From Alkalilimnicola ehrlichii MLHE-1 (GTDB lineage: Bacteria; Pseudomonadota; Gammaproteobacteria; Nitrococcales; Halorhodospiraceae), in NCBI RefSeq assembly GCF_000014785.1, contig NC_008340.1, positions 2,040,001 through 2,072,000 on the forward strand: a stretch of 32,000 nt of DNA, written 5' to 3'. The position numbers and the translations under genes were made by a program. Below, in pieces: positions 431-15,979 of this stretch. Within the stretch, counting starts at the first letter, position 1. Each line of letters starts with the position of its first letter. The notes beneath the pieces are model-generated. The model searched no databases. It was given only the letters and a program-made list of their open reading frames with translations, and had not been told where the DNA came from.

Positions 431-447
431 GCGCGGCTGGTTATGCA

Positions 448-950: not shown

Positions 951-983
951 GACGCACCTCTTGCGTGTTCAACTTTTCACCAA

Positions 984-1021
984 GTGTACGCCTTTGGGTA
1001 CGTACGTCAAGACGAACGTAC
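984..1021 (-). promoter_or_regulatory. Putative yefM-yoeB promoter/operator with repeated GTAC cores
   Basis: GTAC cores at 986-989, 998-1001, 1002-1005 and 1018-1021, 35-70 nt upstream of the yefM ATG. TGTACG (985-990) and GGTACG (997-1002) are 12 bp apart. On the minus strand TTGACG (1011->1006) could act as a -35. Confidence 0.35.
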
Positions 1022-1237
1022 TGCATAACGCCCGGCCCCCAGCAGGTCAACCAGATCGGTGTGGCCACGGCCCCGCTGCACGTCCGGCACCCAGTGCAGG
1101 TAGCGCATGGTCGAGTGCAGATCCTTATGCCCCTTGCCTTGCTCGATGCGAAGCTGAGAGCGCTCGCCGTCAATGTCCGTGACCCGCACCGCGACCAGCT
1201 CACTGACCCGTAACCCCTTCGCTCTAACGCCAGCCAT
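1007..1237 (-). pseudogene. Remnant of a tyrosine recombinase gene (5'-truncated, internally deleted)
   Basis: The 76-aa ORF contains GLRVSELVAVRVTDIDGERSQLRIEQGKGHKD (box I region) fused directly to LHSTMRYLHW (the C-terminal Tyr region). Most of the catalytic domain is missing. The apparent ATG lies inside attC 1222-1282. Confidence 0.6.
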
Positions 1238-1282
1238 CAGTTGCGCGACGCAAGGAGCGTCAACTGCATGGCATTGTTATAC
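1222..1282 (-). other. Integron attC site (61 bp) closing the type I R-M cassette
   Basis: Plus strand: CTCTAAC-gccaGCCATCAGTTGCGC-gacgcaagga-GCGtCAACTGcATGGCatt-GTTATAC. It is an imperfect palindrome with two unpaired bases on one arm. The minus-strand R'' GTATAAC is the exact complement of the GTTATAC that opens the cassette at 8520-8514. Confidence 0.8.
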
Positions 1283-1303
1283 GCTTTCTGCACCCCAAAA
1301 CGC

Positions 1304-4300
1304 CTATCCGCCGCCGGTGCGCTTTTCCTCACGCACTCGCTTAAAAATCTCCTCGGCAAGGTGCTCATGGGCTGCTGAACGAAACTCCTTGTCGGTCATC
1401 ACACGCGAAAATATGTCTTCGTTGTTTTCCATTCGGTCAATGAACAGTTCATCCAGCATTCGCTCCAGAAATGCGGAGAAGTTTGGCAGGTTGTTTGCCC
1501 TTGCCGCTTCAACGATTTTTTCATTTTCCTCGGCGCTCGCGGTGATCTGATCAAAGAACAGTTGGTCGGCTTCGGTAAAGTCTGTGCCAAAACGTTCGTT
1601 TAGCTTTTCGACCAGTGATGATAGCGGCACGGCTTCCTCCTTCACGCCACTAGTGCCGACATCGGTGGGCCCTTTCAGAGGGTAGGCCTCGCCCGTGCCC
1701 AGGTCGATGGAGCCCTCCGTCATTTGTTGCAGGCGGAAATAGCGCAAGGCCACTTCGTCGTCGAGTGCGAAGGCCTGACCATCGCCAGGAGGGGGAAGCT
1801 TGGAAAGTAAGTTGCGGACGAAGGCGTAAAATTTTTCCAGTTCGCTGTCCTGATACGGAATGATCTGAGATAGAAAAGCGTAGAGATTACGGTAGGCGGT
1901 CAACTGGCCGCGAAACTCTTCTTGCTCCGCTTCCTCCCTGTCACTGAAGCGCGCAACCACCGCATCTAACACTGCATTCATTACCCGGTGGTCGGAAGCA
2001 GAGTGATCCCGTTTGCTCCGATACCATACATCCGCGAAAGCATTGACATCATCGGGCGCAAAGATGGCCCAACCCATAAGTTTGTGTTGCAGCTCGGACA
2101 ACTGGTGCGGATCGGCATTCTCGCCGACAGGTGTAGCCTCGTAGTAGGGCTTGAAGGACTGATAGATATCGTCTTCCTCGTTGGCGAAGTCCAGCACGAA
2201 GGTACGGGCCTTGCCCGGTGCCACACGATTGAGGCGAGACAGGGTCTGCACTGCCTGGACACCGGCCAGGCGTTTGACTACATACATGGTCTGCAGCAGC
2301 GGCTGGTCGAAACCGGTCTGGTATTTCTCCGCGACCAGCAGCACACGGTAATCCTCGCGCTCGAAGGTTTCCGGCAGCTCGCTTTCCGCCAGACCGTCAT
2401 TCATCGCGACCTCGGTGTAAGCGGAACCGGGGTCGTCTGGATCTTCAACGCTACCGGAGAAAGCGACCAGCGAGCGTATGCCGCCATAGCCGTTGTCCTT
2501 GATATAGCGGTCAAAGGCCAATTTGTATTTCACCGCAGCCAGCCGCGATCCAGTCACTACCATGGCTTTGGCACGCCCGCCCATTTCGCTCATCACATAC
2601 AACCGGAAGTGCTCGACGATCACCGAGACCACCTGCTCGATATTGACCGGGTGCAATTCCAGGTAGCGGCTCAGGGCCTTGGCGGCTTTCTTGCGCGGTA
2701 CTTCCGGGTCGTTCTCAACCTGCTTGATCAGGCCGAAGAAGCGCTTGTAGGTGGTGTAGTTCTGCAGCACGTCCATGATGAAGCCTTCTTCGATGGCCTG
2801 ACGCATGGAGTATTCGTGAAACGGAGAGCTGCCGGAGGGGCCCGGTTCATCGAAAAGGGCCTTGGTCTTGAATTTCGGCGTGGCGGTAAAGGCAAAGAAA
2901 CTAAGGTTTGGTTGCCGTGCCCGCTTCAGCGAATCGCGAAGAATAGCGGCCTTGGCTTCATCCGACAGCGCATCGTCTTCCTCATCCGACAACTGGGCGG
3001 CTATGGCCGCCTCGATGCCATCCTTGTTCAGCATGCCCCGCAATTCAGAAGCTGTCTCGCCGCTCTGGGAGGAATGCGCCTCGTCCACAATCACAGCAAA
3101 ACGCTTGCCGGCGGTGCTGATTTTCACCCCTGTGCCCTTTTTCTCCAGCGTAGAAAGGGCCTGGGAAATGAAGGGGAATTTCTGCAAGGTGGTGATAATG
3201 ATCGGCGTGCCGCCGGACAGGGCCTGAGCCAATTGCTGGGTGTTCTCGTCGATCTTCTCCACCACCCCGGTCTTGTGCTCGAACTGGTAGATGGTGTTCT
3301 GCAACTGCTGGTCCAGCACGCGCCGGTCAGTGACCACCACCACCGAGTGGAACACCTTCTGATCCTCGGCATCGTGCAGGCTGGCCAGCCGGTGCGCCAG
3401 CCAGGCGATGGAATTGGACTTGCCGGAACCGGCCGAGTGCTGGACCAGATAATTGTGCCCCGAGCCATTGGCCCGTGCATGGACCACCAGCCTGCGCACC
3501 GCGTCGAGCTGGTGATAGCGGGGGAAGATCATGGTTTCCTTGCGGATGGTGCGCACGCCCTTGTCGGTCTTGACCTGCCGCTCCTTCACCTCCAGGTGCA
3601 TGAAGCGTTGCAGGATGTCCATCAGGCTGTCCTTCTCCAGCACCTCATCCCACAGGTAGTGGGTCTTCCAGTTGTTCTCCACTGGTGGATTGCCTGCGCC
3701 ATGATCATGCCCGCGGTTGAAGGGCAGAAAGACGGTATCCTTGCCCTTCAGGCGCGTGGTCATCCATGCCTCGTCCGGGTCCACGGCAAAATGCACCAAG
3801 GCGCGCTTTTTGAACGCAAACAACAGGTCGCGTTCATCGCGGTCCTGCTTGTATTGCTTGACCGCATCTGCCGCCCGCTGGCCGGTGAGCGAGTTTTTCA
3901 ATTCTGCGGTGACCACCGGCAGGCCGTTCAAGCTCAGAGTGACATCGATAATGCAGCGGCGGTTTTTGGTTGATTTTGGACCATCGGCCTTCTTCATCAC
4001 CGAAGTAAAAGCCACCTGCCGGGTGACCGTTAGCCGGTTCAGTGCGTAGGCGGCCGCCGCCTCCGGGTTCATGCCGGAATTGGGCCGGAAATGCGCCAGC
4101 CGGAAGGTCTTGCCGTAACATTTGAAGCCGTAGCGCAGCACATGCAGGGTGCCCTTGATCTCCAACTCCTTGGCCAGGCTGTGCAGCACCGTGGCGCGAG
4201 TCTTTTCGCCCAGCAAGGCTTCCAGTTGGCCCCACTTGGCCGCTTGGCTGTCCTGCAAAAAACCGGTGACATCCTCTGGGAATATCGCCAACGCCTCGTC

Positions 4301-4393
4301 GTAGGCTGAGGCATTGCGTTTCTCATAGCCGCCCGCACTGGTCAGGCTGGCTTCTATGGCGGTTTCAAAAGCGAGTTCGGAGTGGCCAGCCAT
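1304..4393 (-). CDS. hsdR: Type I restriction enzyme R subunit (helicase/endonuclease)
   Basis: 1029 aa. Walker A (SAGSGKSNS), DEAH box (VIVDEAHSSQSG) and SF2 helicase layout. Last gene of an hsdM-hsdS-orf-hsdR operon. Confidence 0.9.
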   Translation of the reverse strand: MAGHSELAFETAIEASLTSAGGYEKRNASAYDEALAIFPEDVTGFLQDSQAAKWGQLEALLGEKTRATVLHSLAKELEIKGTLHVLRYGFKCYGKTFRLAHFRPNSGMNPEAAAAYALNRLTVTRQVAFTSVMKKADGPKSTKNRRCIIDVTLSLNGLPVVTAELKNSLTGQRAADAVKQYKQDRDERDLLFAFKKRALVHFAVDPDEAWMTTRLKGKDTVFLPFNRGHDHGAGNPPVENNWKTHYLWDEVLEKDSLMDILQRFMHLEVKERQVKTDKGVRTIRKETMIFPRYHQLDAVRRLVVHARANGSGHNYLVQHSAGSGKSNSIAWLAHRLASLHDAEDQKVFHSVVVVTDRRVLDQQLQNTIYQFEHKTGVVEKIDENTQQLAQALSGGTPIIITTLQKFPFISQALSTLEKKGTGVKISTAGKRFAVIVDEAHSSQSGETASELRGMLNKDGIEAAIAAQLSDEEDDALSDEAKAAILRDSLKRARQPNLSFFAFTATPKFKTKALFDEPGPSGSSPFHEYSMRQAIEEGFIMDVLQNYTTYKRFFGLIKQVENDPEVPRKKAAKALSRYLELHPVNIEQVVSVIVEHFRLYVMSEMGGRAKAMVVTGSRLAAVKYKLAFDRYIKDNGYGGIRSLVAFSGSVEDPDDPGSAYTEVAMNDGLAESELPETFEREDYRVLLVAEKYQTGFDQPLLQTMYVVKRLAGVQAVQTLSRLNRVAPGKARTFVLDFANEEDDIYQSFKPYYEATPVGENADPHQLSELQHKLMGWAIFAPDDVNAFADVWYRSKRDHSASDHRVMNAVLDAVVARFSDREEAEQEEFRGQLTAYRNLYAFLSQIIPYQDSELEKFYAFVRNLLSKLPPPGDGQAFALDDEVALRYFRLQQMTEGSIDLGTGEAYPLKGPTDVGTSGVKEEAVPLSSLVEKLNERFGTDFTEADQLFFDQITASAEENEKIVEAARANNLPNFSAFLERMLDELFIDRMENNEDIFSRVMTDKEFRSAAHEHLAEEIFKRVREEKRTGGG

Positions 4394-4396
4394 GGA

Positions 4397-5008
4397 TCAA
4401 ATCTCCTGTATCGAGGTGTTCTGCAACTCGGCCAGCGCCTGGCCGTGCACCTCGTCAAAATGGTAATAGCGTATGGATGGATCAGCGCGGAGTTGCCGAT
4501 TGGGTTCCAGATAGGCGTCTGGGTTGTCATTCTCGGCAAAGACGAATTTGCGAAGATGAATTCGGCGCTTGTCACCGGTGTAATGCTCGATGGTGCGCTT
4601 GAGGCTGTGGACCCAACAGGCACCCGCCCTGAGCTGAGGGACAATCTTTTCAGCAGTCAAACTCTTGGATTTGAACTCGATACAGTCCGCGTAAAACCTT
4701 TGGCCGTTCACATAGAAAATAACGAAGTCGCAGCGCTTTGACCAAGGCTTAGCTGTATCGTCTAGAAAGTGGAAAAGAGGCGGTTTACTCTTTTTCCGCT
4801 GCAACTCAACCTGATCATGGTCCAACTTGAAAGCCAATCCCGGCCCCGGCAAAAGAAGCTGTATTTTCCTTGTTTTCGCGCGGGTCCCTGTTGGAGGAAA
4901 ATACTTTTCTTTCAGGATGACTTCACCTCCCACGCCATCATGCATCACATATCGACTATTTACATAGGCCTTCAGGTGCTCGAAATAGGTGGAGGCTGCC
5001 AACGTCAT
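4397..5008 (-). CDS. Hypothetical protein with a PD-(D/E)xK-like motif, embedded in the type I R-M operon
   Basis: 203 aa. Its start overlaps the hsdS stop (ATGA at 5005-5008) and its stop is 3 nt from the hsdR start. ...KRCD94FVIFYVNGQRFYADCIE111FK113SKS... fits D-x(n)-ExK on consecutive beta-strand-like segments (codons about 4670-4729). No family recognised. Confidence 0.55.
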   Translation of the reverse strand: MTLAASTYFEHLKAYVNSRYVMHDGVGGEVILKEKYFPPTGTRAKTRKIQLLLPGPGLAFKLDHDQVELQRKKSKPPLFHFLDDTAKPWSKRCDFVIFYVNGQRFYADCIEFKSKSLTAEKIVPQLRAGACWVHSLKRTIEHYTGDKRRIHLRKFVFAENDNPDAYLEPNRQLRADPSIRYYHFDEVHGQALAELQNTSIQEI

Positions 5009-6264
5009 TGCAGACCTCCGATTTGGCCAGTGACGGCAGCGGTAATTAGTGCAGAGCGATATTCTTCTAGCTTCTGGACACTACGCTTTACTTCATCTGC
5101 AGCGAAGCGATTCTCTCGATCTACACGTGAACAATAGTCGGCAATCTCAGTTTGCTCATCTAGAAAGGGAATTGGTAACACAAACGCACCAAGCGCTTCT
5201 CGATTTACTTTAGGCATCGCAACGCGAAGTGACTCAAGCTCGGCATAAGCCGTAAACGCATCAGTTAGAAGAAAATAAAATAAGTACCGACGTTCAAAAT
5301 ACTTCCCGGGGTCAATAGCGTACATATCTGCACTGCAAAGACACACTGAATCAAATAACGCAACCTTTCTGAGTGCAGGGCGAATCTTTGAGTATAGAAC
5401 AGAGCCCTCAGAGCAGAAGTATTTCCCGCTAATTGCTCCCTGTTCCTCGGCACTAGGGACATCGTATAGTCGTCCAGTACCGCTTTCTATATAGTCGGGA
5501 GCAATTAAAGGCATATCTGTATACTCAGGCTCGCGAGGATCGACTTGCCCACTTTGTACTTGGCATCTCCATTTGAATGGAACCAGATCCCAATGCGCAG
5601 GAATATCACCCAGCCAGTCGATGCCGGAGGGTTTCATGGGGGCTTCGGGGTTAAGGCCCTTGGTGACGGCGCGGGTGATCAGGGCCTGGCGCTTTTCCGC
5701 CAGCCGGTCCAACAGGGCGCGCTTTTTCTCGATCAGGCCATCGATGCGGGCGGTCTTCTCATCCAGAAACTGCGCGATGCGGCGCTGGGTTTCGAGGGGT
5801 GGGAGCGGCATTTCGATAGTGACCAGCTCACTAGCGTTAATCGCCGGATAGCTGACCCCGACCGAGCGCGAAACAACCTCCGATACAAACGGCTCAGATT
5901 TCGCGGCCCAACCGAGGTATCCACTATCGACTTCTTCCCTGTCTGGTCGAACAACACAAAAACCTGTCGAAGCAATCAGGTCTGGCGAAGCTTCGTCAAC
6001 CTTGGCAATGGCCCTGAGGTAAGTCCGAACTGTAGAAATCAATATGTCGCCGCTTCGCACTTTACGACGAGCACGAGAGGGAGCCTTCCCGAAAGTAATA
6101 CGCTCTACCTGCTCAACTCCACGAGATAGGGAAACACCTGAGATCTCAACGTAGTCGATCTCGGCCTCTTCATCAGTGCTTTCTGGTAAGACCTCATCAT
6201 TATAGGTAGCTAGGTATTTGAGGCGCTTGCTTGACCATGTCGCTGGAAGTGTTACGTCAATCAT
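5005..6264 (-). CDS. hsdS: Type I R-M specificity subunit
   Basis: 419 aa. Two target-recognition-domain-like halves are separated by a conserved coiled-coil spacer (PPLETQRRIAQFLDEKTARIDGLIEKKRALLDRLAEKRQALITRAVTKGL). The C-terminal repeat of the same type is KLEEYRSALITAAVTGQI. Overlaps hsdM by 4 nt. Confidence 0.9.
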   Translation of the reverse strand: MIDVTLPATWSSKRLKYLATYNDEVLPESTDEEAEIDYVEISGVSLSRGVEQVERITFGKAPSRARRKVRSGDILISTVRTYLRAIAKVDEASPDLIASTGFCVVRPDREEVDSGYLGWAAKSEPFVSEVVSRSVGVSYPAINASELVTIEMPLPPLETQRRIAQFLDEKTARIDGLIEKKRALLDRLAEKRQALITRAVTKGLNPEAPMKPSGIDWLGDIPAHWDLVPFKWRCQVQSGQVDPREPEYTDMPLIAPDYIESGTGRLYDVPSAEEQGAISGKYFCSEGSVLYSKIRPALRKVALFDSVCLCSADMYAIDPGKYFERRYLFYFLLTDAFTAYAELESLRVAMPKVNREALGAFVLPIPFLDEQTEIADYCSRVDRENRFAADEVKRSVQKLEEYRSALITAAVTGQIGGLQ

Positions 6265-8438
6265 CCCACCAATCCCCTTAAAAGCCCGGCAATTTCCCCT
6301 TCCAGTTCGGTAATCTCCTGCTCGATCTCGTCCAGCGGACGCGGTGGCTTGTAGACGTAGAAATGCCGGTTGATCGGGATTTCATAACCCACCTTGGTCT
6401 TGCTGTAGTCCACCCAGGCATCATCCACATGGGGCAGCACCTCGCGGGCCATGTAGGCGTCGATCTCGGCCCGGAAGGCGGTCACCAGCTTGTCATTGGG
6501 TTTGTCCGGGCCGAACTGCATTGGCAGGGGCAGTTGGGTGCCCTCGGGCAAGGGGATGTTCTCGGTGTCGCGCAGTTCGCTGTCAGGCTCCGGTCTGCCC
6601 TTGCTGTCGCGGCAAATTTCGGCATCGGGGTCGCGCTCGCCCAGAGCGTTGAAGATGGCCTTTTTGATCGGTACCGGGAGTTTGAGGCTAGCCACCTTGG
6701 CAGCGGCGTTCAGATCCGCTTCGAAAACGGCGCGGTCGGTGTACTGCCCCTTGGGTGCTAGGCTCGCCAACAGAGCGCGAATCGCCTCCTGCTGCTTTTG
6801 CCCTTCCGCGATCTCCTTGGCAGCCGCAGCCTCATTCTTGCGTTTTTTCGAGGTGGCCAGGTTGGCAAAGGCGGTCTGCTCATCCAGCCGGGCAATGCGC
6901 TCCGGCGAAGCTTCGAAGTTCATGCGCAGGGGGCGCTCCACCGTCACCTTGAGAAAGCCGAACTCGCGGTTCTCGAAAATGCGGGAGACCACACGGGTTT
7001 CGGTGTCGCCGTTGATTCTTACCTCGGCGGTTTCACCGTCCCGGTTGTTACCGTAGAGTCGGGTCAGATCGCGGATCTGGTCTTCGGTGACCTCGTTACG
7101 CTTGTTGTTGAGGCTTTTCTTCATGCGCTGGAAAAAGCGTGTGCCGTCGATTAGTTGCACCTTGCCGCGCCGCTCCGGGGCCTTGCGGTTGGTCACCAGC
7201 CAGACATAGGTGAAAATACCGGTGTTGTAGAAAAGCTGGTCGGGCAGCGCGACGATGGCATCGAGCCAGTCGTTTTCGATAATCCAGCGGCGGATATTCG
7301 ACGGCCCGGAACCGGCATCACCGGAAAATAGCGGCGAGCCATTGAAGACGATGGCGATCTTGGAACCGACGGAGTCGTCATCCCCCTCTTTGTAGGGGTG
7401 CATCTTGGCGATCATGTGCTGCAGGAACAGCAGGGAGCCGTCATTGATGGCGGGCAGGCCGGCGCCGAATCGTCCGGCAAAGCCCATCTCCTTGTGTTCT
7501 TTCTCGACGACGGTTTTCTGGTCTTTCCACTCCACACCAAAGGGCGGATTAGCCAGCAGGTAGTGAAACTGCTTGCCCTCGAAGCCGTCGCGGGTCTTGC
7601 CGTCGCCCAGGGTATCGCCCAGCACGATGCTGCTGGTGTCTTCATCCTTGATCAGCATGTCCGAACAGCAGATGGCCCAGGACTCGTCGTTGTACTCCTG
7701 ACCGAACAGCGCCAAGTTAGCCTGACTGTTCTGGTCGAGGATGAATTTCTCCGATTCCGACAGCATGCCGCCCGTACCGCAGGCCGGGTCGTAAATAGTG
7801 CGGTAGATGCCCGGCGTGTAAACATCCTGTTCGCCGGTGTAGACCAGATTGGCCATCAGGCGGATGACTTCGCGCGGGGTGAAGTGGTCCCCGGCCTCTT
7901 CGTTGGCCTGCTCATTGAAGCGCATCACCAGATGCTCGAACAGGTAGCCCATTTGCAGGTTGTCGATGCGGTCCGGGTGCAGGTCCACTTCTGACATCGC
8001 CTTGACGATGGTAAACAGCCGGTTGCTGGCGTCGAGTTTTTCGATCTGGTCAGTGAATTTAAAACGCTCGAAGATGGCCCGAGCCGTAGGCGAGAAACCG
8101 TTGATATAGGCGACAAGGTTAGGCGCAATGTTCTCCGAATCCCCCAACAATTTCTCGAAGATGAACGGACTGGTGTTGTAGAGAGGGTGGGTTCGGTCAG
8201 GATCGGCCGCCTTGCCCAACAGCTTCTCCATGGCATTTTCCGGCATACCTTGAGCGGACAGCTTTTCGTATTGCTTCAGCACCGCTTCTTTGGTGGGCTC
8301 CAGCACACAATCCAGTCGCCGCAGCACGACCATAGGCAGCATGACCAAGCGGTACTGAGGGGGGCGGTAAGGGCCGCGAAGGCGGTTGGCGATTTCCCAG
8401 ATGTGGCTTTTGAGCTGGTCGTGCAACTGCAAGTTCAT
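6261..8438 (-). CDS. hsdM: Type I R-M N6-adenine DNA methyltransferase subunit (long form, 725 aa)
   Basis: HsdM N-terminal region, AdoMet motif (DPACGTGGML) and catalytic NPPFG (LLANPPFGVEW). A long C-terminal extension is present. AAGGA lies upstream of the ATG. Confidence 0.9.
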   Translation of the reverse strand: MNLQLHDQLKSHIWEIANRLRGPYRPPQYRLVMLPMVVLRRLDCVLEPTKEAVLKQYEKLSAQGMPENAMEKLLGKAADPDRTHPLYNTSPFIFEKLLGDSENIAPNLVAYINGFSPTARAIFERFKFTDQIEKLDASNRLFTIVKAMSEVDLHPDRIDNLQMGYLFEHLVMRFNEQANEEAGDHFTPREVIRLMANLVYTGEQDVYTPGIYRTIYDPACGTGGMLSESEKFILDQNSQANLALFGQEYNDESWAICCSDMLIKDEDTSSIVLGDTLGDGKTRDGFEGKQFHYLLANPPFGVEWKDQKTVVEKEHKEMGFAGRFGAGLPAINDGSLLFLQHMIAKMHPYKEGDDDSVGSKIAIVFNGSPLFSGDAGSGPSNIRRWIIENDWLDAIVALPDQLFYNTGIFTYVWLVTNRKAPERRGKVQLIDGTRFFQRMKKSLNNKRNEVTEDQIRDLTRLYGNNRDGETAEVRINGDTETRVVSRIFENREFGFLKVTVERPLRMNFEASPERIARLDEQTAFANLATSKKRKNEAAAAKEIAEGQKQQEAIRALLASLAPKGQYTDRAVFEADLNAAAKVASLKLPVPIKKAIFNALGERDPDAEICRDSKGRPEPDSELRDTENIPLPEGTQLPLPMQFGPDKPNDKLVTAFRAEIDAYMAREVLPHVDDAWVDYSKTKVGYEIPINRHFYVYKPPRPLDEIEQEITELEGEIAGLLRGLVG

Positions 8439-8513
8439 TTAGTTGATTATCCTTTTGATATTAGTGCGTGTTTCTGTAGATAATGTTCTCAGGTGAAGCG
8501 GTATTGTGAGTGC

Positions 8514-8603
8514 GTATAACGCAAAGGTAACCGGCGCCGGAGCGCCAGCGGGGGGAACCAAAAGCGGAACGCTTTTGGCGTCCGGTTGACCGCTTGGTTA
8601 GAG
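8514..8603 (-). other. Integron attC site (90 bp) closing the DUF867 cassette
   Basis: Plus strand: GTATAAC-gcaaaGGTAACCGGCGCC...GGCGtCCGGTTgACCgcttg-GTTAGAG. T and G are unpaired on the arm next to GTTAGAG. A perfect 9-bp inner hairpin (CCAAAAGCG-gaa-CGCTTTTGG) is present. The ORF stop codon (8598-8600) lies inside the R'' box. Confidence 0.85.
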
Positions 8604-9212
8604 CAGGCCTGCACGAATCAGCCCCTGACGAACGGCATCGACAAATTTATAGAACACGTCAGTCTGGCGTGCTCTTCCAGCTTTATTGAGAGACTCAAAG
8701 AGAGTGCTTCTCAAGCCGCGGGAGAGCTCTAATTGAACACCAGCTCCGCTCGTTCCGCGATTACAGATATTCGCTCGTGATGTCCCTTGAAGATTCGGGT
8801 TTTCATGCTTGCGCACGGTAAAACCGGCCTCTGCAAGTGCTTCGCTTATTTGAGAGCGCAGCAGCGCATCGGCACCGCCAGCAAATACCGTTTCCCCTGG
8901 GCTGTTTTCACCATGTATTGCTACAGCAGTGCGAGACCGCGCGACTACTTCGACACAACGAGGTTCATCGAAATTCGTACTGGTTATATGCAAGTCCCGG
9001 TTCTTGGCTACCTTAGTACCCTCAAAAATTGCGAAACTAAACTGCTCGCCTGCAATAGCAAAGGCCAACTCTGATGTGCCTGGCTCAATTGCACCACCAT
9101 GCGGGGCAATCACAGCTACCGCTGCTTCGTCTCGCACCGCCACCTGAACGCGAAAATCGCGCCCTTCAGTTTGCTCAGCTTTAAGTGCTTTAAAATTTGA
9201 GTATCTGTCCAT
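8598..9212 (-). CDS. Poly-gamma-glutamate hydrolase family (DUF867 / PghP-like) protein
   Basis: About 204 aa. APHGGAIEPGTSE and ...AVAIHGE... match the remembered HGG-IE-GT and downstream His zinc-ligand pattern of the family. The ATG at 9212 is preferred over the TTG at 9215. Confidence 0.65.
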   Translation of the reverse strand: MDRYSNFKALKAEQTEGRDFRVQVAVRDEAAVAVIAPHGGAIEPGTSELAFAIAGEQFSFAIFEGTKVAKNRDLHITSTNFDEPRCVEVVARSRTAVAIHGENSPGETVFAGGADALLRSQISEALAEAGFTVRKHENPNLQGTSRANICNRGTSGAGVQLELSRGLRSTLFESLNKAGRARQTDVFYKFVDAVRQGLIRAGLL

Positions 9213-9219
9213 CAATTCG

Positions 9220-9288
9220 CTCTAACGCTCAACTAAGCCGCTGGGCGGAGCGTAGCGTAGCCCAGTCGGCTTGAGTGTTATGTTAGCG
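9220..9288 (-). other. Integron attC site (69 bp) closing the membrane-protein cassette
   Basis: Plus strand: CTCTAAC-GCTCAActaAGCCGcTGGG-cggagcgtagcgtag-CCCAgtCGGCTTGAGt-gttat-GTTAGCG. The minus-strand R'' CGCTAAC is the exact complement of GTTAGCG at the cassette start (10209-10203). A tandem partial box GTTAT/GTTAGCG leaves the exact R'' register ambiguous. Confidence 0.75.
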
Positions 9289-10188
9289 ATTCGACATAAC
9301 ACGATAGAACTCTCTCACTGCACTTGCGAACGCGGAGCGTTCCCTAAGCAGTCGCACATACGTCGGCAGATTAAATCCGATAACGGGAGAGAGCAGATTG
9401 CCACGAATGCTGCCGGCCAGCATGGATATTGGCCCGCTCAACTTCTCCGCACAGTCAATAAATTGTTGGCATTCCTGTACGTTCACTTGATTATGGAACT
9501 CTTGGATGTAATTGGGATTATTCACATCGACTATTGGTACATGAATCCACATCTTTCTCCCGATCTCCTCAAGAGCCTGCACTGCCTCATCAAAGGCATC
9601 CGGCATTCCCCAGCCCGAACATAGTATTGTGTAGTTCCTTCCCTTTATTCGATGAACTTGTACCGTGGCCTGCGACAGTTGCTCTCTCGCTGATAGGAAT
9701 TCTCTAGTCTGGCTCAGGGCCCAGTCCACCTTAAATTTTGCCTCACGAGCGTTACTCCCTCTTTGGACCTCATTCACCGCTTCAACGAGGGACTCTACGA
9801 AGAGCTGCGCATCAGTTACAAGTTGGTTGGTTGTTCCAAAAAAATGCTCGATTTCGCCCGCTGTCTGGGTTCTAAGCTGCGCCTGTTGCTGCTGCTTCCA
9901 GCTCACGGTTGCCGTATGAAATGCCACCACAAAGCCACCAAGAGTTACCGCTGCGGTGGCAAGTCCTACTTTGTAAGCCTCCGGCTGTCCGTTGAACCAC
10001 AATACCAACTCGCCAGGGGAAAATGGCTCTACACCGAGCACAGTCTCCGCCCCTACGTATAGTGATATCGCCAGCGCTAGTGCACCCAATGCAGTGCCGA
10101 AAAGAAAGTGCACCAACATCCCAATCGAAATGAACGCGTAGAACGCTGGAACGGCCACTTGAGGTGGAATGCGCTGGAATATCTTCAT
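9283..10188 (-). CDS. Hypothetical membrane protein (2-3 N-terminal TM helices plus a helical soluble domain)
   Basis: The ORF track gives 9283-10266. I prefer the ATG at 10188 (MKIFQRIPPQ...), which is preceded by GGGAG. The hydrophobic stretches are AVPAFYAFISIGMLVHFLFGTALGALALAISLYVGA and VGLATAAVTLGGFVVAFHTATV. No family recognised. Confidence 0.55.
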   Translation of the reverse strand: MKIFQRIPPQVAVPAFYAFISIGMLVHFLFGTALGALALAISLYVGAETVLGVEPFSPGELVLWFNGQPEAYKVGLATAAVTLGGFVVAFHTATVSWKQQQQAQLRTQTAGEIEHFFGTTNQLVTDAQLFVESLVEAVNEVQRGSNAREAKFKVDWALSQTREFLSAREQLSQATVQVHRIKGRNYTILCSGWGMPDAFDEAVQALEEIGRKMWIHVPIVDVNNPNYIQEFHNQVNVQECQQFIDCAEKLSGPISMLAGSIRGNLLSPVIGFNLPTYVRLLRERSAFASAVREFYRVMSNR

Positions 10189-10202
10189 ACGTCTCCCAGA
10201 CT

Positions 10203-10274
10203 CGCTAACGCCGCGCTCTGCGGCAAATTTGGAGCGCAGCGGAGAATTTGTCCGACAGCAGCGCATTGTTAGGG
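10203..10274 (-). other. Integron attC site (72 bp) closing the CHAT-like cassette
   Basis: Plus strand: CGCTAAC-gccGCGCTCTGCGGCAAATT-tggagcgcagcggag-AATTTGtCCGaCAGcAGCGCatt-GTTAGGG. It forms a long imperfect stem with unpaired bases on the arm next to GTTAGGG. The minus-strand R'' CCCTAAC is the exact complement of GTTAGGG at the cassette start (11148-11142). Confidence 0.85.
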
Positions 10275-10277
10275 ATT

Positions 10278-11126
10278 TTACGTGGCAACAATATCATCCT
10301 TAGATAAAGGGAAGCGCGCATCATTTTCTGGAAAATCAGCAATGAAGAAGAACCTTTTTCTGAGTTTATCAAAGTGCTGATCTTCAGATGCAAGACCTTT
10401 CTTTACTTGCTGTCTGGCCCATGCCACACCACGTCTCTTTACGTCGGGGTTTTTCATCGCCTCAGAAACAAGGCGTTCTACCCTTTCTTTCTTCCCTTTC
10501 CCGACACAGTGACTTTTATAGTAGGCTCGGTAAGCCCTTGAAAATAGTCCAGCAGCGCTTAAAAAATGATAGGTTCGATCTTGATGCTCTGCCCCTTCAT
10601 TAAGGATACCTATGGCTTTATCACCATCGAGGTCGAAAAAGAAGGACTCATAAAACCGACCGAAATTATCCTGAATATGCCCAGCAGTTACTTCTACCTC
10701 CGGACCAATTATTGCCCAGAAAGGAGCCGCATCTAGCCTTGTAGATGCTTTTATTAAATGGGCACCATTGCAGGCAGCAATTACAATCATCAGATTTAGC
10801 TTAGTCGCTCGGTTAATCTCAATAAGTATCTCTCTGATTTCATCCCATTCAACCAGTTCTCCGCTAGCGGTTCCCAAGCCGTCTTCACACCCATGACACT
10901 CAAAGTGGATCATTGGATATATTCCGCTCAAAGCCTCATTTCGTATTTTTTCTAATACGTCAAACAGCTCGGACTTAGTTATTGGCTCAGCGAATTCGAC
11001 GACAAGGTCTTGCTGTACCTGCTTAGCCTTGTCCAGCTGATTGTCGAAGAGATTTTTCCCGGTTCTAAGCTCACCTGATGGTAAAGATTCTATAACCCAC
11101 AGCTTATTGAAAATATTTCCGGACAT
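10278..11126 (-). CDS. Putative clan-CD (caspase/CHAT-like) cysteine peptidase, single-gene cassette
   Basis: 282 aa. A hydrophobic strand followed by His-Gly (PMIHFEC-H78-G) and, 41 residues later, a hydrophobic strand followed by Cys (LMIVIAA-C119-NGA). This is the order and context of the caspase-hemoglobinase-fold catalytic dyad. H78 codon 10893-10895; C119 codon 10770-10772. Motif-level call only. Confidence 0.5.
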   Translation of the reverse strand: MSGNIFNKLWVIESLPSGELRTGKNLFDNQLDKAKQVQQDLVVEFAEPITKSELFDVLEKIRNEALSGIYPMIHFECHGCEDGLGTASGELVEWDEIREILIEINRATKLNLMIVIAACNGAHLIKASTRLDAAPFWAIIGPEVEVTAGHIQDNFGRFYESFFFDLDGDKAIGILNEGAEHQDRTYHFLSAAGLFSRAYRAYYKSHCVGKGKKERVERLVSEAMKNPDVKRRGVAWARQQVKKGLASEDQHFDKLRKRFFFIADFPENDARFPLSKDDIVAT

Positions 11127-11141
11127 GACGATTCCATTTAT

Positions 11142-11217
11142 CCCTAACGCGCAGCGTAACCGGTCGGATTTGGAGCGTCAGCGGAAAAGCCGATCCGTGT
11201 TGACGCTGTTGTTGTGC
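11142..11217 (-). other. Integron attC site (76 bp) closing the DUF262-HEPN cassette
   Basis: Plus strand: CCCTAAC-gcgCAGCGTAACCGGTCGG-atttggagcgtcagcggaaaag-CCGAtCCGtGTTgACGCTGtt-GTTGTGC. The 16-nt arm pairs perfectly once T, T and G on the other arm are flipped out. The minus-strand R'' GCACAAC is the exact complement of GTTGTGC at the cassette start (13051-13045). Confidence 0.85.
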
Positions 11218-11260
11218 TAAGCTGACGGATCGAATTCGTCTCGCCGCCACTCCTTATCCA

Positions 11261-11893
11261 TTACTCTGCACAATTCATAATATTATTTTGGAAACAATCC
11301 GATAAAACCAGAAGCATCCTTTGCGTAAACGTGACGTGCTCCCTGATATCTATCGTCGACAAATCCGGGTCATCGCCATGCGCAATACTATGGCGCCACC
11401 TCACAAGCTCGTTGTCTATTTTAAGGCGCCACCGCAAGAATGGAGAGCAATCGAACCCCATGACTTCGAAGTTGTCTTTTAACTTTCTGAAATCTAGATT
11501 TGATCTAGAAGAAACCACTTCCTTATCAAAATTCAAAAAGTCCCCTCTTGTCACTTCCTGAAATCGCAAGATAAACTCTACTGCTGCAAGCTGAGAATGA
11601 TTTCTATCTCTGAGCCTTTGAAAATCAGACTGGAGCAACCCAATCAGCATTGGCCAAGAGACATCTGAAACCTTCTTTCTAGCCTCCCTCAAAAAATCTA
11701 TGTAAAGAGATACGCAATCGTTATAAAACCCTTCCCAGTGAGAATAGGATAAAACGATAACTGCCTTCGACTGGACCCCAAATTGCGCAATAGAGCCTAG
11801 CTCATTCATTCGGACTTTTATCTCTGACAGTTCCTTGGCTCGGCGCAAGCGGATCGAATCCAAGTCTGAGAGAAATTGAAAAACATCGCTCAT
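11261..11893 (-). CDS. HEPN-domain protein (MAE_28990/MAE_18760-like), predicted RNase effector
   Basis: About 210 aa. Rx4H motif W-R-H-S-I-A-H-G (codons 11378-11395) near the C-terminus, plus the upstream YSHWEGF element typical of this HEPN family. The ATG at 11893 overlaps the DUF262 TGA (ATGA). The ORF track starts at 11908. Confidence 0.7.
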   Translation of the reverse strand: MSDVFQFLSDLDSIRLRRAKELSEIKVRMNELGSIAQFGVQSKAVIVLSYSHWEGFYNDCVSLYIDFLREARKKVSDVSWPMLIGLLQSDFQRLRDRNHSQLAAVEFILRFQEVTRGDFLNFDKEVVSSRSNLDFRKLKDNFEVMGFDCSPFLRWRLKIDNELVRWRHSIAHGDDPDLSTIDIREHVTFTQRMLLVLSDCFQNNIMNCAE

Positions 11894-12999
11894 TGTGGAG
11901 AAAACCAATTCTCACCAAATGGTACGGTTCTTTGGATCCGAGTAGTCCCTCGCAAGCCTGACGCACTCAACTCGGCGACATCTCTTTCTCGCCAGAACCG
12001 ATCGACGCGCTCACGCAAAAAACCATCCGGGTCTTCCAAGTCCTGAATTTTTTCTTTGTTTCTGGCGACCCCTACCAATATCGCTTCCAGTGCACGCAGA
12101 GAAAATCTTTTGGCTATTCCTTGATAAGCCTCGTCATGAGGAATCAAGGCATCGCCCCCGAATAAGCTATGCAAGCTATTGACGGCCCATTCCACCGTAT
12201 GGATCACATCATTCGGATCTTGATCCACGATAATTCGCGCAATACTTCGGTCGAGGAACTCCTGAACATCAGCATCTGAGCCAAAATCTTCGACTGTATG
12301 AACAATAGCACGAACCGCATATTCAACATCTTTTTGTTTTAAATTCTGCTCTTCCGTAATTTTAAAAATATTTATAAATTCTTCGCTTCTTGCCAGATTC
12401 CTTATTCGAGCGGTAGCATCTGCATTTCCAAGCACCATTGAACAAGTGCGGACTTCCTGCTCATTAGCGTACTCGCCACCCCGATTCAATCGCTGAAACA
12501 AATCAAATTTCGTTTTTGCGTCACTTGGGTGTTTAAGTATCTGGAAATCCAAGCGTGACCGACGAAAGAAAAGCTGAAGAGATTTTTCAAGAACTTGAGC
12601 ACCTCCATCTCCTCCTTCTGTTGGCCACACGACACCATCTAAGGACGGAAGATAGGTTGCAGTTGTCAGAGTAGAAGGCGGCATCTTCTCTGCAGGATTA
12701 TCTGGTTCGCGCAAAACGCCCATGAACTCGAGCACTGTGGAGATACGTTGTAACCCGTCTATCAGCTCCCATGTTCCATCTGGCTTTTCATATGCGAAAG
12801 CCGGGGGCACAGGGATTCCAATCAAAATCGATTCGATAAAAGCCGTCTTCTTTTCAGGAGACCAACGAAATAATCTCTGAAAATCAGGGATAATATCTAG
12901 CTCCTCCGCCGCATACATGGAAGCGATCTCCCCAATGGAGATTTGCAAACTATCGGTAACAACTGATCGCTTTGCGGTTTCTAGTTCATTTCTTAACAT
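11890..12999 (-). CDS. DUF262 (ParB/Srx-fold, GmrSD-N-like) protein lacking a DUF1524/HNH nuclease domain
   Basis: DFQRLFRW, IDGLQR and FQRLNRGG motifs match the DUF262 signature (QR..W, DGQQR, LN.GG). The ATG at 12999 is preceded by GAGGG at 7-nt spacing. The ORF could extend to 13017. Confidence 0.75.
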   Translation of the reverse strand: MLRNELETAKRSVVTDSLQISIGEIASMYAAEELDIIPDFQRLFRWSPEKKTAFIESILIGIPVPPAFAYEKPDGTWELIDGLQRISTVLEFMGVLREPDNPAEKMPPSTLTTATYLPSLDGVVWPTEGGDGGAQVLEKSLQLFFRRSRLDFQILKHPSDAKTKFDLFQRLNRGGEYANEQEVRTCSMVLGNADATARIRNLARSEEFINIFKITEEQNLKQKDVEYAVRAIVHTVEDFGSDADVQEFLDRSIARIIVDQDPNDVIHTVEWAVNSLHSLFGGDALIPHDEAYQGIAKRFSLRALEAILVGVARNKEKIQDLEDPDGFLRERVDRFWRERDVAELSASGLRGTTRIQRTVPFGENWFSPQ

Positions 13000-13044
13000 T
13001 AAGCAGCCCTCAAGCATGGAGAATCATAAGCAGAAATTTCATCT

Positions 13045-13063
13045 GCACAACGCCTAGTTAACC
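13045..13063 (-). other. attI-like simple site at the head of the cassette array
   Basis: Minus strand: GGTTAAC-taggc-G|TTGTGC. The GTTGTGC core is cognate to the R'' of the first cassette's attC. A related 19-bp site (plus strand GTTCAAC-gcctt-GTTGCAC) lies at 13140-13158. Overlaps the last codons of the IS91 tnpA ORF. Confidence 0.5.
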
Positions 13064-14343
13064 GGCCCGCATCGAGGCAAATAAAAATGCCGATCGCCCT
13101 CATTCACCTCGGACCTCCTCGAAGGCACTAGCGGGTCCGGTTCAACGCCTTGTTGCACACTGCCCGAAGCCTTCGGAGGCGACCCACTTCTTATTAGGGA
13201 ATTTTGAATCCGGTGGCGACTCGGGGGAAGCGTGAATCCCCGGATCAGCTCGGCACCGCAAGCGGGACAGCACAGGGCGTCGCTATGGCCAAGCATCTCC
13301 AGGTACGCCTGCCAGGTCTGCTTCTTCGGCTCCACTTCGGGCATAGGCGCCCCCATTTGTTCTCGGCAAGCCATTCGCTTGGCACGGCAGGTGTGGGCAT
13401 ACAGACCAACGTGGCGGACGGTGTGCTGACCCGGCTCCGGGACATGCCACAGGATCTGTTCCATGAATCGCTCCACCGCCACACGCCGCAGTTTCCGTCG
13501 ACCATCCCGGTGGTCATGGTAACGGAATTGAACCTGGCCTTCCCCCAACGACTTGATCCGGGTGTTTGTGATGGGTCCGCCGCGCACGTAGCGAGACAGG
13601 TACGCAGCGACTCCTCGTCCATGTGTATAGCGGCCCTGCAAACGGACATTCCATTCTTTCTTCGCAGTGGCCTTGAGCCAGTAATCCACGGTCGGATGAT
13701 CGCCACGGGGCGCTTTCAGTCGGCCAGTATCCAGATCATGGCGCAGACGGGAGAGTAGTTTGCCCCGGAACACGCGCTTCACCACGGCCGCAGGCAGCAG
13801 AAAGTCACCCTTCACCGCTCGCCACTGTCCACCCGTCGTCAATCCACCCCCACTGATCAAGCAGTGAACATGGGGGTGGGCGTTAAGGGTTCGACCCCAC
13901 GTGTGCAGGGCCATCACAATGCCGGGGACCGCCCCTAGGTGACGATCTTGCGCAAGCAGTTGGATGAGGGTGTCCCGACTGGCATCGAATAGCGCGGCCA
14001 CGAAGGACCGGCGGTTGTACCGCCACAGGGGGATCAATTCATGGGGCACGGTAAAGATAGCGTGGAAATGATCGCAAGGCAGCAGGCGGCCTCGTTCACG
14101 CTCCATCCACTGTGCCTTGGCACGCTCCGCACATTGCGGGCAGCTACGATGCCGGCACGAGTGGTACTGCACGCGGCGGTGGTGGCCATGGGGACAACAC
14201 TGCTCGTGGCCCCCCAGCGCTTCCGTCCGGCAATTCATAATCGATTCTGCCGCTTTGAGCTGCGGGAGCGGAAAACAATGATGTTTACGAAGCCCATCAA
14301 AATGCTCCAGAAATACGTCCTGAATGGTCGGCTTCCTTGCCAT
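13054..14343 (-). CDS. tnpA: IS91-family (HUH, Y2) rolling-circle transposase; element ends not defined
   Basis: 429 aa. N-terminal Cys/His zinc-binding region (CCPHGHHRRVQYHSCRHRSCPQC), HUH motif (HPHVHCLISGGG), YxxxY pair (YLSRY) and C-terminal CPACG. The last approximately 55 aa look non-conserved and run over the attI-like sites. Confidence 0.85.
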   Translation of the reverse strand: MARKPTIQDVFLEHFDGLRKHHCFPLPQLKAAESIMNCRTEALGGHEQCCPHGHHRRVQYHSCRHRSCPQCAERAKAQWMERERGRLLPCDHFHAIFTVPHELIPLWRYNRRSFVAALFDASRDTLIQLLAQDRHLGAVPGIVMALHTWGRTLNAHPHVHCLISGGGLTTGGQWRAVKGDFLLPAAVVKRVFRGKLLSRLRHDLDTGRLKAPRGDHPTVDYWLKATAKKEWNVRLQGRYTHGRGVAAYLSRYVRGGPITNTRIKSLGEGQVQFRYHDHRDGRRKLRRVAVERFMEQILWHVPEPGQHTVRHVGLYAHTCRAKRMACREQMGAPMPEVEPKKQTWQAYLEMLGHSDALCCPACGAELIRGFTLPPSRHRIQNSLIRSGSPPKASGSVQQGVEPDPLVPSRRSEVNEGDRHFYLPRCGPVN

Positions 14344-14590
14344 TGATTGAGCCTCCTGTACGGCGCTCCATGCCGTATATTACAGACATTGCAACGCGGC
14401 ATGTCTTCGCCAACTAACTGAAAAATCGCAACATCTGCCGCGAAGCGGCTTTGTGCAACAGTTGATTCTACTGCGTCTGTAGAGGCGGTGATATGCAGAC
14501 GCCGCATGTCACACCCGGGATACTTGATATCGAACCAGTCGGTGGCGCATGCTTATCGTGCATAGTCATGGACTGACGGAGTAAGGAATC

Positions 14591-15979
14591 ATGGTTGATC
14601 CAAGCCGCAAAGATGCCCGTGCCCGGTTCTGGGATCGTTACATCCAGGCTCTCCGAAAGCAAGGCGTGAAGCCACCCTTCGACCGATGGCACGTACGTCG
14701 GGCGGAGGAGTTCATCAAGGCGCACCCTGATCAAAGGCTTCGCGAGTTGGGCCCTGATGGCGTGCAAAGCTACCTGCGACGGAAGGGACACGCCGGTAAT
14801 CTCAAGGCCTGGCAGTTCCAGCAAGTGGTTCGTGCTATACAGACGCTGTATAGCACGGCTAACATAGCATGGGCTGCGAGGTTCGACTGGCAGTATTGGA
14901 TGGATGCCGCCCGAACGCTCGAGCCTGAACACGTTTCTACGGCCCGGGACACCCCAGCGCCAACTCCGGTACGGCTTGCCGAACGTGTTGCTGACACTCG
15001 TCTGGCACACGTGGTACACGCGCACCCCGCGCTTTTTGAGGCTTTTTCTGAAACAGTCACCAGCAGAGGCTTGGCGATCAGCACCGAGAAAACCTACCTG
15101 GCGTGGACCTGCCGGTTCATTGTGTTTCTGCAGTCGAAGCCTGTGGAAAGCGCGGACGAGGCGGATGTTCAACAATTTCTCAGTCAGTTGGTCACACAGC
15201 GCAATGTAGCCGCCAGCACCCAGAGCCAGGCTCTGAACGCTTTGGTCTTCTTCTTCCGGTACGTTCTGCAGCGACCGCTTGGCGAACTCCAGGCTATTGA
15301 GAGGTCAAAACGGCCCAGGCGCCTTCCTGTGGTTCTCTCTCGCAATGAGGTCAAGGCGCTGTTGAGTGAAATGCACGGTGTTCACCATTTGCTGGCCTCA
15401 TTGCTTTATGGTTCCGGCATGCGGGTCATGGAAGCACTACGATTGCGCGTCAAAGATATAGATTTCGAGCGGCGGGCAATCACGGTGAGATCCGGCAAAG
15501 GCGATAAGGATCGCGTGGTACCCCTTCCCGAATCCACGATAGCGCCGCTCCAGAACCACTTGCGGCAGGTGAAGGCCATTCACGAGGGAGACCTGGCCGA
15601 TGGGTACGGTGAAGCCTCCCTCCCCCATGCCCTGGCCCGGAAGTACCGCAATGCCGGGAAGGAATGGCATTGGCAGTATGTGTTTCCCAGTGCCCGGGTA
15701 GCGGTCGATCCCCGATCAGGGGCGATCCGTCGACATCATCTTCATGAAACCGCTGTCCAGCGTGCGGTAAAACGGGCGGTGAGAGCCTCCAGAATACCGA
15801 AACAGGCCAGTTGCCACACCTTGCGGCACAGTTTTGCCACGCACCTGCTGGAGCGCGGCCAGGATATCCGAACCGTGCAAGAGCTCCTGGGCCACGCGGA
15901 TGTATCGACGACCATGATCTACACGCATGTAATGAGCAAAGGTGGCGTCCCTGCGGCGAGCCCGTTGGACGGGCTTTAG
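14591..15979 (+). CDS. intI: Integron integrase (IntI-type tyrosine recombinase) with an approximately 130-aa N-terminal extension
   Basis: 462 aa. It aligns by eye with IntI1 across the N-terminal SAM-like domain, box I ([27 protein letters not shown]), the IntI-specific insertion ([21 protein letters not shown]...RRHHLHE), [28 protein letters not shown] and the tail GG..ASPLDGL. AAGGA lies 4 nt upstream of the ATG. Confidence 0.85.

Follow-up and report, generated by a model that had tools for sequence, protein, structure and literature searches.

What kind of element carries the IS91-family transposase gene that lies beside the integron integrase gene of Alkalilimnicola ehrlichii MLHE-1, and where does that element begin and end? 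We analysed a stretch of 32,000 nucleotides (nt) around this gene (NC_008340.1, 2,040,001-2,072,000, forward strand; hereafter the window, in whose numbering positions are given). A sequence-only reading had placed the gene, tnpA, between the integrase gene intI and an attI-like site, and had taken it either for an insertion sequence (IS) that had split the integron attachment site attI, or for an element whose ends are marked by two inverted heptamers. The observation is real, and the sequence features on which it drew are all present, but they were assembled into the wrong anatomy. Comparison with related loci makes it likely that the unit at 13051-14458 is a transposase-bearing integron gene cassette inserted at an intact attI, because it begins at the attI crossover, ends in a canonical cassette attachment site (attC) of its own, and has the same limits in unrelated arrays. 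Such a unit would most likely have been moved by the integron integrase, IntI. The features on which this argument turns are as follows, with a slash marking points of cleavage or crossover here and below.

13054-14343, minus strand: tnpA open reading frame (ORF), 429 amino acids (aa), IS91-family Y2 HUH transposase
14591-15979, plus strand: intI, integron integrase, long form, 462 aa
14459-14590, minus strand: attI and the intI/cassette promoter region, with the crossover between 14459 and 14458 (G/TT, minus strand), from a four-locus alignment
13051-14458, minus strand: tnpA gene cassette, 1408 nt, first in the array; 5' limit from loci L003 and L001, 3' limit from the R''/start-core rule with cassette 2
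14453-14459, minus strand: cassette 5' core GTTGCAC, that is GTT plus the IS91-type tetranucleotide GCAC; exact reverse complement of R'' (13152-13158)
13045-13158, minus strand: attC of the tnpA cassette, with R'' 13152-13158, L'' 13140-13146, L' 13057-13063 and R' 13045-13051

The transposase and the integrase

TnpA scores 382.7 bits against NF033538 (cut-off 125; the model spans aa 6-364), also matches PF04986 and PF14319, and was found by protein search to be 100% identical to an A. ehrlichii MLHE-1 protein. The HUH (H158-V-H160), Y248xxxY252 and Cys/His zinc residues, described as intact from the window alone, are invariant columns in a 40-sequence alignment of relatives, so that the protein has both the Y2 HUH domain and the zinc-binding N-terminus typical of the IS91 family. 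As had also been noted, the stop codon TAG (13054-13056) lies 2 nt from GTTGTGC (13051-13045, minus strand), the C-terminal tail runs over two 19-bp sites (13045-13063 and 13140-13158), and a third related site, GTGCAAC-A-GTTGATT, is located at 14453-14467. The last ~65 aa fall beyond the family model. Among relatives the reading frame and the stop position shift in this tail while the DNA stays conserved; it is read-through into attC. We considered the tail as a conserved protein feature and rejected it, because relatives read the same DNA in different frames and their stops differ.

IntI matches TIGR02249 end to end (448 bits against a cut-off of 265, across aa 150-462), along with PF13495 and PF00589, and hundreds of IntI homologues of 460-470 aa cover 100% of the protein. 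The PF00589 match is stretched, with 201 residues per 168 profile positions, which by this measure indicates the presence of the IntI-specific insertion. An N-terminal extension of ~145 aa (14591-15025, plus strand) is kept in hundreds of 460-470-aa homologues annotated as integron integrases, and its weak match to Phage_int_SAM_4 (E = 0.024, residues 15-89) suggests a second, tandem core-binding-type domain. Cassettes with tnpA adjoin both long and short forms of IntI.

attI is unsplit

The intI-mfd locus also occurs in L001 (IntI 82% identical), L002 (83%) and L003 (97%, another A. ehrlichii strain). When these three loci are aligned with the window, all four are conserved from the intI ATG to AAC/AG at window 14459/14458, the conserved block ending ...AATCAACTG/TT on the minus strand. 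Beyond this point L003 continues with an unrelated small cassette and L001 with the end of a kdpE-like gene, and in L002 it is tnpA that follows, with a 5' end identical to that in the window and attached at the identical base of the crossover. The region between intI and 14459 thus adjoins the 5' side of intI, ends at G/TT, is conserved together with intI and is followed by sequence that varies, as an attI should. Because the region upstream of intI is collinear in the four loci up to the crossover, attI is intact and in its normal place beside intI, with tnpA after the crossover in the first cassette position.

The attI-like site at 13045, on the far side of tnpA, is accordingly misnamed: it is the R' end of the tnpA cassette's attC, attI itself lying at ~14459-14590, and the third site, proposed as an IntI-binding box, is the junction between attI and cassette. 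An IS91 element transposed into attI, with IntI-binding boxes left on both sides and cassette expression reached by read-through, would account for the three related heptamer-containing sites that flank the gene. We give this account almost no credence, since attI is collinear to the crossover with L003 and L001, both of which are free of tnpA at this point, and the distal sites together make up an attC, which accompanies tnpA even in arrays with no attI nearby. Rather than half of an attI, the two 19-bp sites fold and read as a canonical attC, which, with the collinear attI-intI region in three related loci, refutes an insertion inside attI. No sequence signs were seen that the downstream cassettes depend on read-through or that intI has been co-mobilised.

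Within attI, an inverted repeat GCGTCTG...CAGACGC (14474-14503, plus strand) is kept in all four related loci and may bind IntI or have a regulatory function; its sequence does not match a LexA box. In L003 (CP184336.1; 10001-12655 and 1-8558) the intI gene is interrupted by an IS4-like DDE transposase, and the array contains ISL3- and IS4-type insertions and no tnpA cassette at attI.

The unit ends in its own attC

At its other end, the unit closes with a site that reads, on the minus strand from 13158 to 13045, GTGCAAC-aaggc-GTTGAAC ... GGTTAAC-taggc-GTTGTGC. Its 114 nt and 5-nt spacers agree with the R''-L''...L'-R' palindrome of an attC (57-141 nt, ~5-nt spacers). The cassette itself terminates at G 13051, the TTGTGC part of R' GTTGTGC belonging to cassette 2, whose own R'' is GCACAAC at 11211-11217; the unit is thereby bounded, as cassettes are, by a 5' core with a G/TT crossover and by a 3' attC ending in G/TT. 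Either strand of the site forms an imperfect hairpin (fold z = -2.0 and -2.5), in which L'' GTT-G-AACCGG-A-CCCGC lies opposite L' GCGGG-CCGGTT-AAC and two bases on the '' arm are left unpaired, one after GTT and one 6 bp further in. The classic extrahelical pair of an attC is G and T; here the unpaired bases are C and T on the bottom strand, and we take them to occupy the classic positions. A heuristic attC finder proved blind to strand, these sites being near-palindromes (73 sense against 78 antisense hits), and the rule chaining each start core to its R'' was used instead.

By that rule the R'' of the tnpA cassette, GTGCAAC, should be the inverse of its start core, and the match is exact, the cassette opening with the seven bases GTTGCAC (14459-14453). 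Such agreement is expected because the R' of a cassette is split on integration; in the circular form the two halves would come from a single R'. The earlier proposal that GTTGCAC and GTGCAAC mark the ends of the element therefore holds in part: the heptamers are a pair and covary across the family, but the 3' limit lies 107 nt further on, at 13051. Before the L' arm stands a run of T (13070-13100, minus strand, TTTTTATTT), which is conserved (ATTTTTTTG) in the otherwise variable centre of the family's attCs and might be a terminator after tnpA or a signal related to transposase or replication.

A family with shared limits

A protein search returned thousands of IS91-family matches, the top ones 45-76% identical, 405-435 aa long and mostly on metagenome contigs of 1.3-2 kb. 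Loci of relatives (L numbers) were obtained by exact protein look-up (9) and by a metagenome scan (80); scanning a genome collection with the single TnpA gave one distant relative only, a tyrosine-recombinase-linked IS91 in L004, which was no help in defining ends. In all resolvable members the 5' core GTTGNAC (or GTTGNNC) is followed by 3 nt, usually by a GC-rich hairpin of 5-6 bp, and then by tnpA; after the gene come a motif AAAWTTCCYATA, a linker of 18-64 nt, and an attC that starts GTNCAAC and ends GTT. The attC architecture described above for the window recurs in about 50 relatives. The 5' core GTTGNAC covaries with R'' GTNCAAC, with N = C, A, G and T all seen and matched. Among 58 related loci selected by a position-only rule, 42 have a 5' heptamer that is perfectly reverse-complementary to R'', compared with 19.4 +/- 2.8 when the two are shuffled across loci (maximum 30 in 2000 shuffles). 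The limits of the window's cassette thus appear to be those of a large, little-described family.

The contexts in which the unit occurs fit a cassette. Every context examined is an attI or attC boundary. An ordinary attC precedes the unit in at least 11 loci, the G of GTTGNAC then coming from the R' of that attC, and in L051, L027, L069, L081, L031, L048 and L041, as in the window and L002, it follows attI beside a divergent intI. It behaves as a discrete unit across varied arrays and positions: L102 (76% identical) has the same limits and the same first 30 nt as the window and is preceded by an ordinary attC and followed by a different cassette; the identical P0151 element is found in reshuffled company, with either of two neighbours upstream and any of three downstream; L019 holds two copies, 99.3% identical, at different array positions with differing flanks on both sides; and a further member sits in the clinical class 1 integron In722. 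In the A. ehrlichii genome the unit is present at one place only, and the many GTTC/CTTG-type target sites and frequent multiple copies that are typical of IS91-family elements are not seen for it.

Repeated and closed copies show the extent of the unit and look like signs that whole cassettes were duplicated recently. Tandem pairs of tnpA cassettes are 100% identical in L033 (30-2685) and L048 (3488-6689) and 99.9% identical in L051 (5911-8509), those of L048 and L051 adjoining intI. Contigs L014 and L068 close on themselves through terminal overlaps of 55 and 122 nt, giving units of 1368 and 1555 nt, which are cassette lengths, with a complete attC at the closure; such closure would fit either circles or tandem copies, and the sequence does not tell which enzyme is responsible. 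In all duplicated or closed cases the repeated unit includes attC. A moving unit limited to the IS proper, from the terIS-like to the oriIS-like motif described below, was ruled out because all duplicates and closed contigs have full cassette length with attC. A screen for solitary attCs of the tnpA type, as footprints of transposase-only excision, had a faulty distance filter; by inspection it gave only tandem copies or ordinary attCs.

Some members have individual surroundings. In L066 a reverse-transcriptase/maturase-like gene with a YADD motif (392-1769, minus strand, opposite orientation) abuts the 5' limit of the tnpA cassette (2240-2260; read by eye) at a junction ...GGGCACAC/TTGAAC; it has the appearance of an intron of the group IIC-attC type lodged at the point of crossover, abutting the cassette as attC-targeting introns do at genuine cassette boundaries. 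In L084 the G before TTGGAC is absent. L095 (Thiolapillus brandeum plasmid pTBH10, 10.5 kb) has a 42.5%-identical member with a preceding attC and its own attC, together with IS66 and IS21; no intI is annotated within the 6.6-kb stretch examined.

The recurrence of tnpA next to intI raises the question of whether the two move together, as had been suggested for one-ended rolling-circle transposition. Replication running from the oriIS side through terIS would here lead into intI and could spread tnpA, attI and intI as an integron platform, and IS91-family elements do read through terIS at appreciable frequency (PMC13181058). The pairing does recur, tnpA adjoining intI in at least seven other divergent integrons, but not as a conserved unit: pairwise identities of IntI and TnpA are uncorrelated (r = 0.25; between L051 and L081, IntI is 69% and TnpA 42% identical), Alkalilimnicola relatives keep intI at the mfd locus with or without tnpA, and breakpoints fall exactly at the attI crossover. 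A co-mobilised module is on these grounds very improbable. Given the lack of correlation between IntI and TnpA, and the absence of tnpA from close relatives at this chromosomal position, the adjacency of the two genes is better explained as repeated capture at attI than as a co-inherited module.

IS91-type signals inside the cassette

Two further features of the cassette recall the ends of IS91-family elements.

14437-14449, minus strand: subterminal hairpin GCCGC-TTC-GCGGC, terIS-like, from a covariation alignment
13192-13205, minus strand: oriIS-like DNA motif AAAATTCCCTAATA, family consensus AAAWTTCCYATA

In IS91-family elements terIS is a tetranucleotide plus a palindrome, no target duplication is made, and oriIS abuts GTTC/CTTG-type targets in which T is always second; replication proceeds from oriIS towards terIS, with a measurable rate of read-through at terIS, and the functional intermediate is a bottom-strand single-stranded circle (PMC13181058). 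The start of the cassette, GCAC-AAA-GCCGC-TTC-GCGGC, would correspond to this terIS layout, with the palindrome following the tetranucleotide upstream of tnpA. The hairpin is maintained by compensatory change (GCCGC/GCGGC, TCCGC/GCGGA, TACGC/GCGTA, ATCGC/GCGAT, AACGC/GCGTT): pairing holds in 82% of cells (64% in shuffles), double-change cells number 30 (7.5 in shuffles), the observed value was attained by 0 of 500 shuffles, and slid controls give 0.04-0.17 against 0.50.

The oriIS-like motif lies 39 nt before R'' in the window (18-64 nt in the family) and about 150 nt before the limit of the element. Within it, Ser is encoded by TCC in 27 of 30 genes, compared with 10% of Ser codons elsewhere in the same genes, and Asn by AAT in 18 of 18 (53% elsewhere); at the first residue E, K and Q all occur, yet the nucleotides xAA are kept. 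With codon choice so uniform and the first amino acid variable, the constraint on the motif acts at the level of DNA, not of protein.

For reference ends we had considered pTHC11-2 as a source of ISCR1 oriIS ends; it carries ISEcp1 instead, so the IS1294-like element of pE044_IMP6 was used, in which three left junctions and two right ends (two copies) could be read. Its left end, GAAC-CACG-GCAGCC-TGGC-GGCTGC, has the same layout as the 5' end of the cassette (GNAC, 3 nt, hairpin), and its right terminus reads ...TTTTTCAATTTCCTATAC/GTC(A/G), the cassette motif AAAWTTCCYATA resembling the terminal ...CAATTTCCTATAC. In the IS91 family, oriIS is the very end of the element and abuts the tetranucleotide target; in the cassette, the motif resembling ...TTCCTATAC is internal.

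These signals bear on the main rival, an autonomous IS that targets attC and attI, in which the element's own HUH transposase inserts it beside a GTT(R) core, the attC-like 3' end is its oriIS region and IntI takes no part. The IS91-family properties just described (oriIS abutting GTTC/CTTG-type tetranucleotides, no target duplication, tetranucleotide plus palindrome at terIS) all suit it, the family starts GTT-GNAC-hairpin and always abuts GTTR, the GNAC/GTNC sequences match IS91 targets that have been seen (GTTC, GTCC, GTAC, GTGC; PMC13181058), and the transposase and both cis motifs are conserved. We nevertheless regard it as unlikely. The 3' end is a full canonical attC, with consensus L boxes, 5-nt spacers and unpaired bases, for which a transposase would have no need; the oriIS-like motif is separated from R'' rather than standing at the boundary; all contexts examined are cassette boundaries, though a tetranucleotide target would be found everywhere; and the unit is single-copy per genome or plasmid. 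The two accounts predict different circle junctions, ...AAAATTCCCTAATA(N)-GCACAAAGCC... for a transposase-type circle and ...GGTTAACTAGGC-GTTGCAC... with the full attC for a cassette circle.

Probable movement by the integrase and a possible role for the transposase

In the reading that we prefer, IntI would have inserted the tnpA cassette at attI through attI x attC recombination, and the cassette would be transcribed from the cassette promoter of the integron. It would also keep IS91-type cis signals under selection, namely the 5' tetranucleotide with its hairpin and the oriIS-like motif after the gene. Because these signals are kept and the transposase is intact, it is probable that the transposase continues to nick or replicate the cassette that encodes it; the cassette would then be selfish, not cargo from which the host benefits.

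Several points weigh against this reading. All of the evidence is comparative sequence evidence. IntI cleavage at G/TT and IS91-type cleavage at /GTTN differ by 1-2 nt and give the same junctions, so the sequence does not tell which enzyme made the insertion. The attC cores have AAC and GTT, but GTGCAAC and GTTGCAC each depart from RYYYAAC/GTTRRRY at one position, a deviation that runs family-wide (GTNCAAC). When 12900-14900 was scanned for promoters and terminators, no promoter was found, and the two terminator-like hairpins that turned up are what chance would give. Relatives were chosen by protein similarity, and members of the clade outside arrays could exist in unsampled genomes. Finally, the conserved oriIS-like motif and terIS-like hairpin have no reason to persist if IntI did all the moving, so the explanation is incomplete as to the role of TnpA.

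This last point leads to a fuller version, which we put forward tentatively, as a possibility that remains doubtful: a two-enzyme element whose HUH transposase copies the cassette as bottom-strand single-stranded DNA and whose copies IntI pastes at attI. Integron attC recombination uses the folded bottom strand, and IntI requires an attC in that form. Such an element would explain why an intact transposase and terIS/oriIS signals persist within a perfect cassette, why the core is a fusion of GTT (IntI) with GNAC (the IS91-type tetranucleotide), and why these cassettes are so often first in the array, in tandem at 100% identity, or found as closed units.

Comparison with known systems

INTEGRALL lists the fourth cassette of In722, a class 1 integron of pKPI-6-type IncN blaIMP-6 plasmids, as gcISKpn22 (PMC6262049), and the window's tnpA unit appears to be of the same kind. 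In NZ_AP019550.1, ISKpn22 starts GTTGAAC straight after attC_aadA2, carries GTTCAAC as its R'' and ends at GTTAGAT, with which the 3' conserved segment (3'-CS) begins; there is one copy per In722 plasmid. Like the window's unit, it is an IS91-family gene in a cassette slot, co-oriented with the array and provided with an attC of its own, in which R'' is the inverse of the start core. It differs in being 40.6% identical to the window TnpA, in occupying the fourth slot of a mobile class 1 integron rather than the first of a chromosomal one, in its lack of a clear AAAWTTCCYATA motif, and in a longer spacer from stop to R'' (about 190 nt).

With IS91, IS801 and IS1294 the cassette shares a Y2 HUH transposase with an N-terminal zinc domain, a tetranucleotide with a subterminal hairpin on the upstream side of tnpA, a motif of the TTCCTATA type on its downstream side, the absence of target duplication and a flank starting GT (PMC13181058). 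Unlike them, its oriIS-like motif is not the terminus, a complete attC being appended, and the insertions seen are all at cassette boundaries and single-copy per replicon; the window TnpA is 30% identical to the IS1294-like transposase. ISCR1 of complex class 1 integrons is likewise an IS91-like element physically tied to integrons, but its place is past the 3'-CS, it has neither cassette cores nor an attC as its limits, and the genes that it brings up to its oriIS are not cassette genes (PMC6218425). ISCR28 and ISCR20 stand next to sul4 in integron contexts, and the authors leave open passive cassette shuffling versus self-movement (PMC12772301, PMC5732528); ISCR28, compared by description alone, has its own oriIS and terIS and captures neighbouring resistance genes, whereas the tnpA cassettes give no sign of capture. 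IS1111-attC elements and group IIC-attC introns are also mobile elements specialised on integron arrays, but they interrupt an existing attC, while the tnpA unit interrupts nothing and carries its own. In the integron-like subgroup of IS91 elements with an adjacent tyrosine recombinase (bioRxiv 10.1101/542381), the recombinase is co-transcribed and co-inherited and is without the IntI insertion; the recombinase of the window is divergent from tnpA and not co-inherited, and the IntI insertion is indicated.

Full-text literature searches for a family-level account of IS91-type cassettes gave passing mentions only, within incomplete coverage of the literature. The kind is thus already catalogued yet poorly analysed, and in the literature so covered its family-wide rules were not found described.

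The rest of the array

Five cassettes follow tnpA, the start core of each being the reverse complement of its own R''.

11148-13050, minus strand: cassette 2, NsnA/GmrSD_N-like gene and HEPN (RiboL-PSP) gene (Pfam and PADLOC matches), attC 11142-11217, start core/R'' GTTGTGC/GCACAAC
10209-11147, minus strand: cassette 3, attC 10203-10274, GTTAGGG/CCCTAAC
9226-10208, minus strand: cassette 4, attC 9220-9288, GTTAGCG/CGCTAAC
8520-9225, minus strand: cassette 5, attC 8514-8603, GTTAGAG/CTCTAAC
1228-8519, minus strand: cassette 6, attC 1222-1282, GTTATAC/GTATAAC

Cassette 6 is a complete type I restriction-modification (R-M) operon in a single, unusually large cassette of 7.3 kb; the start core GTTATAC (8520-8514) pairs with R'' GTATAAC (1282-1276), and its attC ends GTTAGAG (1228-1222). 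It contains the following genes.

6261-8438, minus strand: hsdM
5005-6264, minus strand: hsdS
4397-5008, minus strand: PD-T4-4_B-like gene, 203 aa
1304-4393, minus strand: hsdR

The other cassettes of the stretch 8520-13050 (minus strand) have a defence-related or unassigned look. The products of cassette 2, a PD-T4-2_A-like/NsnA GmrSD_N protein and a HEPN RiboL-PSP protein, look defence-related, a gene at 8598-9215 belongs to a poly-gamma-glutamate hydrolase family, and two uncharacterised ORFs of 282 and ~300 aa lie in separate cassettes. The attC at 10203-10274 overlaps the 5' part of the listed ORF 9283-10266; for this reason the gene must in fact start further downstream, and the ORFs of 282 and ~300 aa make up two cassettes rather than one. 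Just past the last attC (~1000-1220, minus strand), apparent tyrosine recombinase-like fragments (...VRVTDIDGERSQLRIEQGKGHKD... then ...HSTMRYLHW) may be a decayed integrase remnant at the array end. G+C is 45-60% in intI and everything to its left and about 70% on the mfd side, to the right of intI.

Implications

The integron at this locus is intact, with attI unsplit and an array of mostly defence-type cassettes normally organised, and labelling tnpA an IS91 insertion would mislead. IS91- and ISCR-type genes within arrays, among them gcISKpn22, ISCR28 near sul4 and ISShvi3, look like members or analogues of one widespread class of elements whose limits are those of cassettes. This bears on the argument in the resistance literature over whether such elements mobilise their neighbours or are merely shuffled by IntI. 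The two-enzyme element, if true, would provide a natural, enzyme-driven source of single-stranded attC substrate, and the terIS-like hairpin, the oriIS-like motif and the hybrid core of GTT and GNAC make cooperation between transposase and IntI testable.

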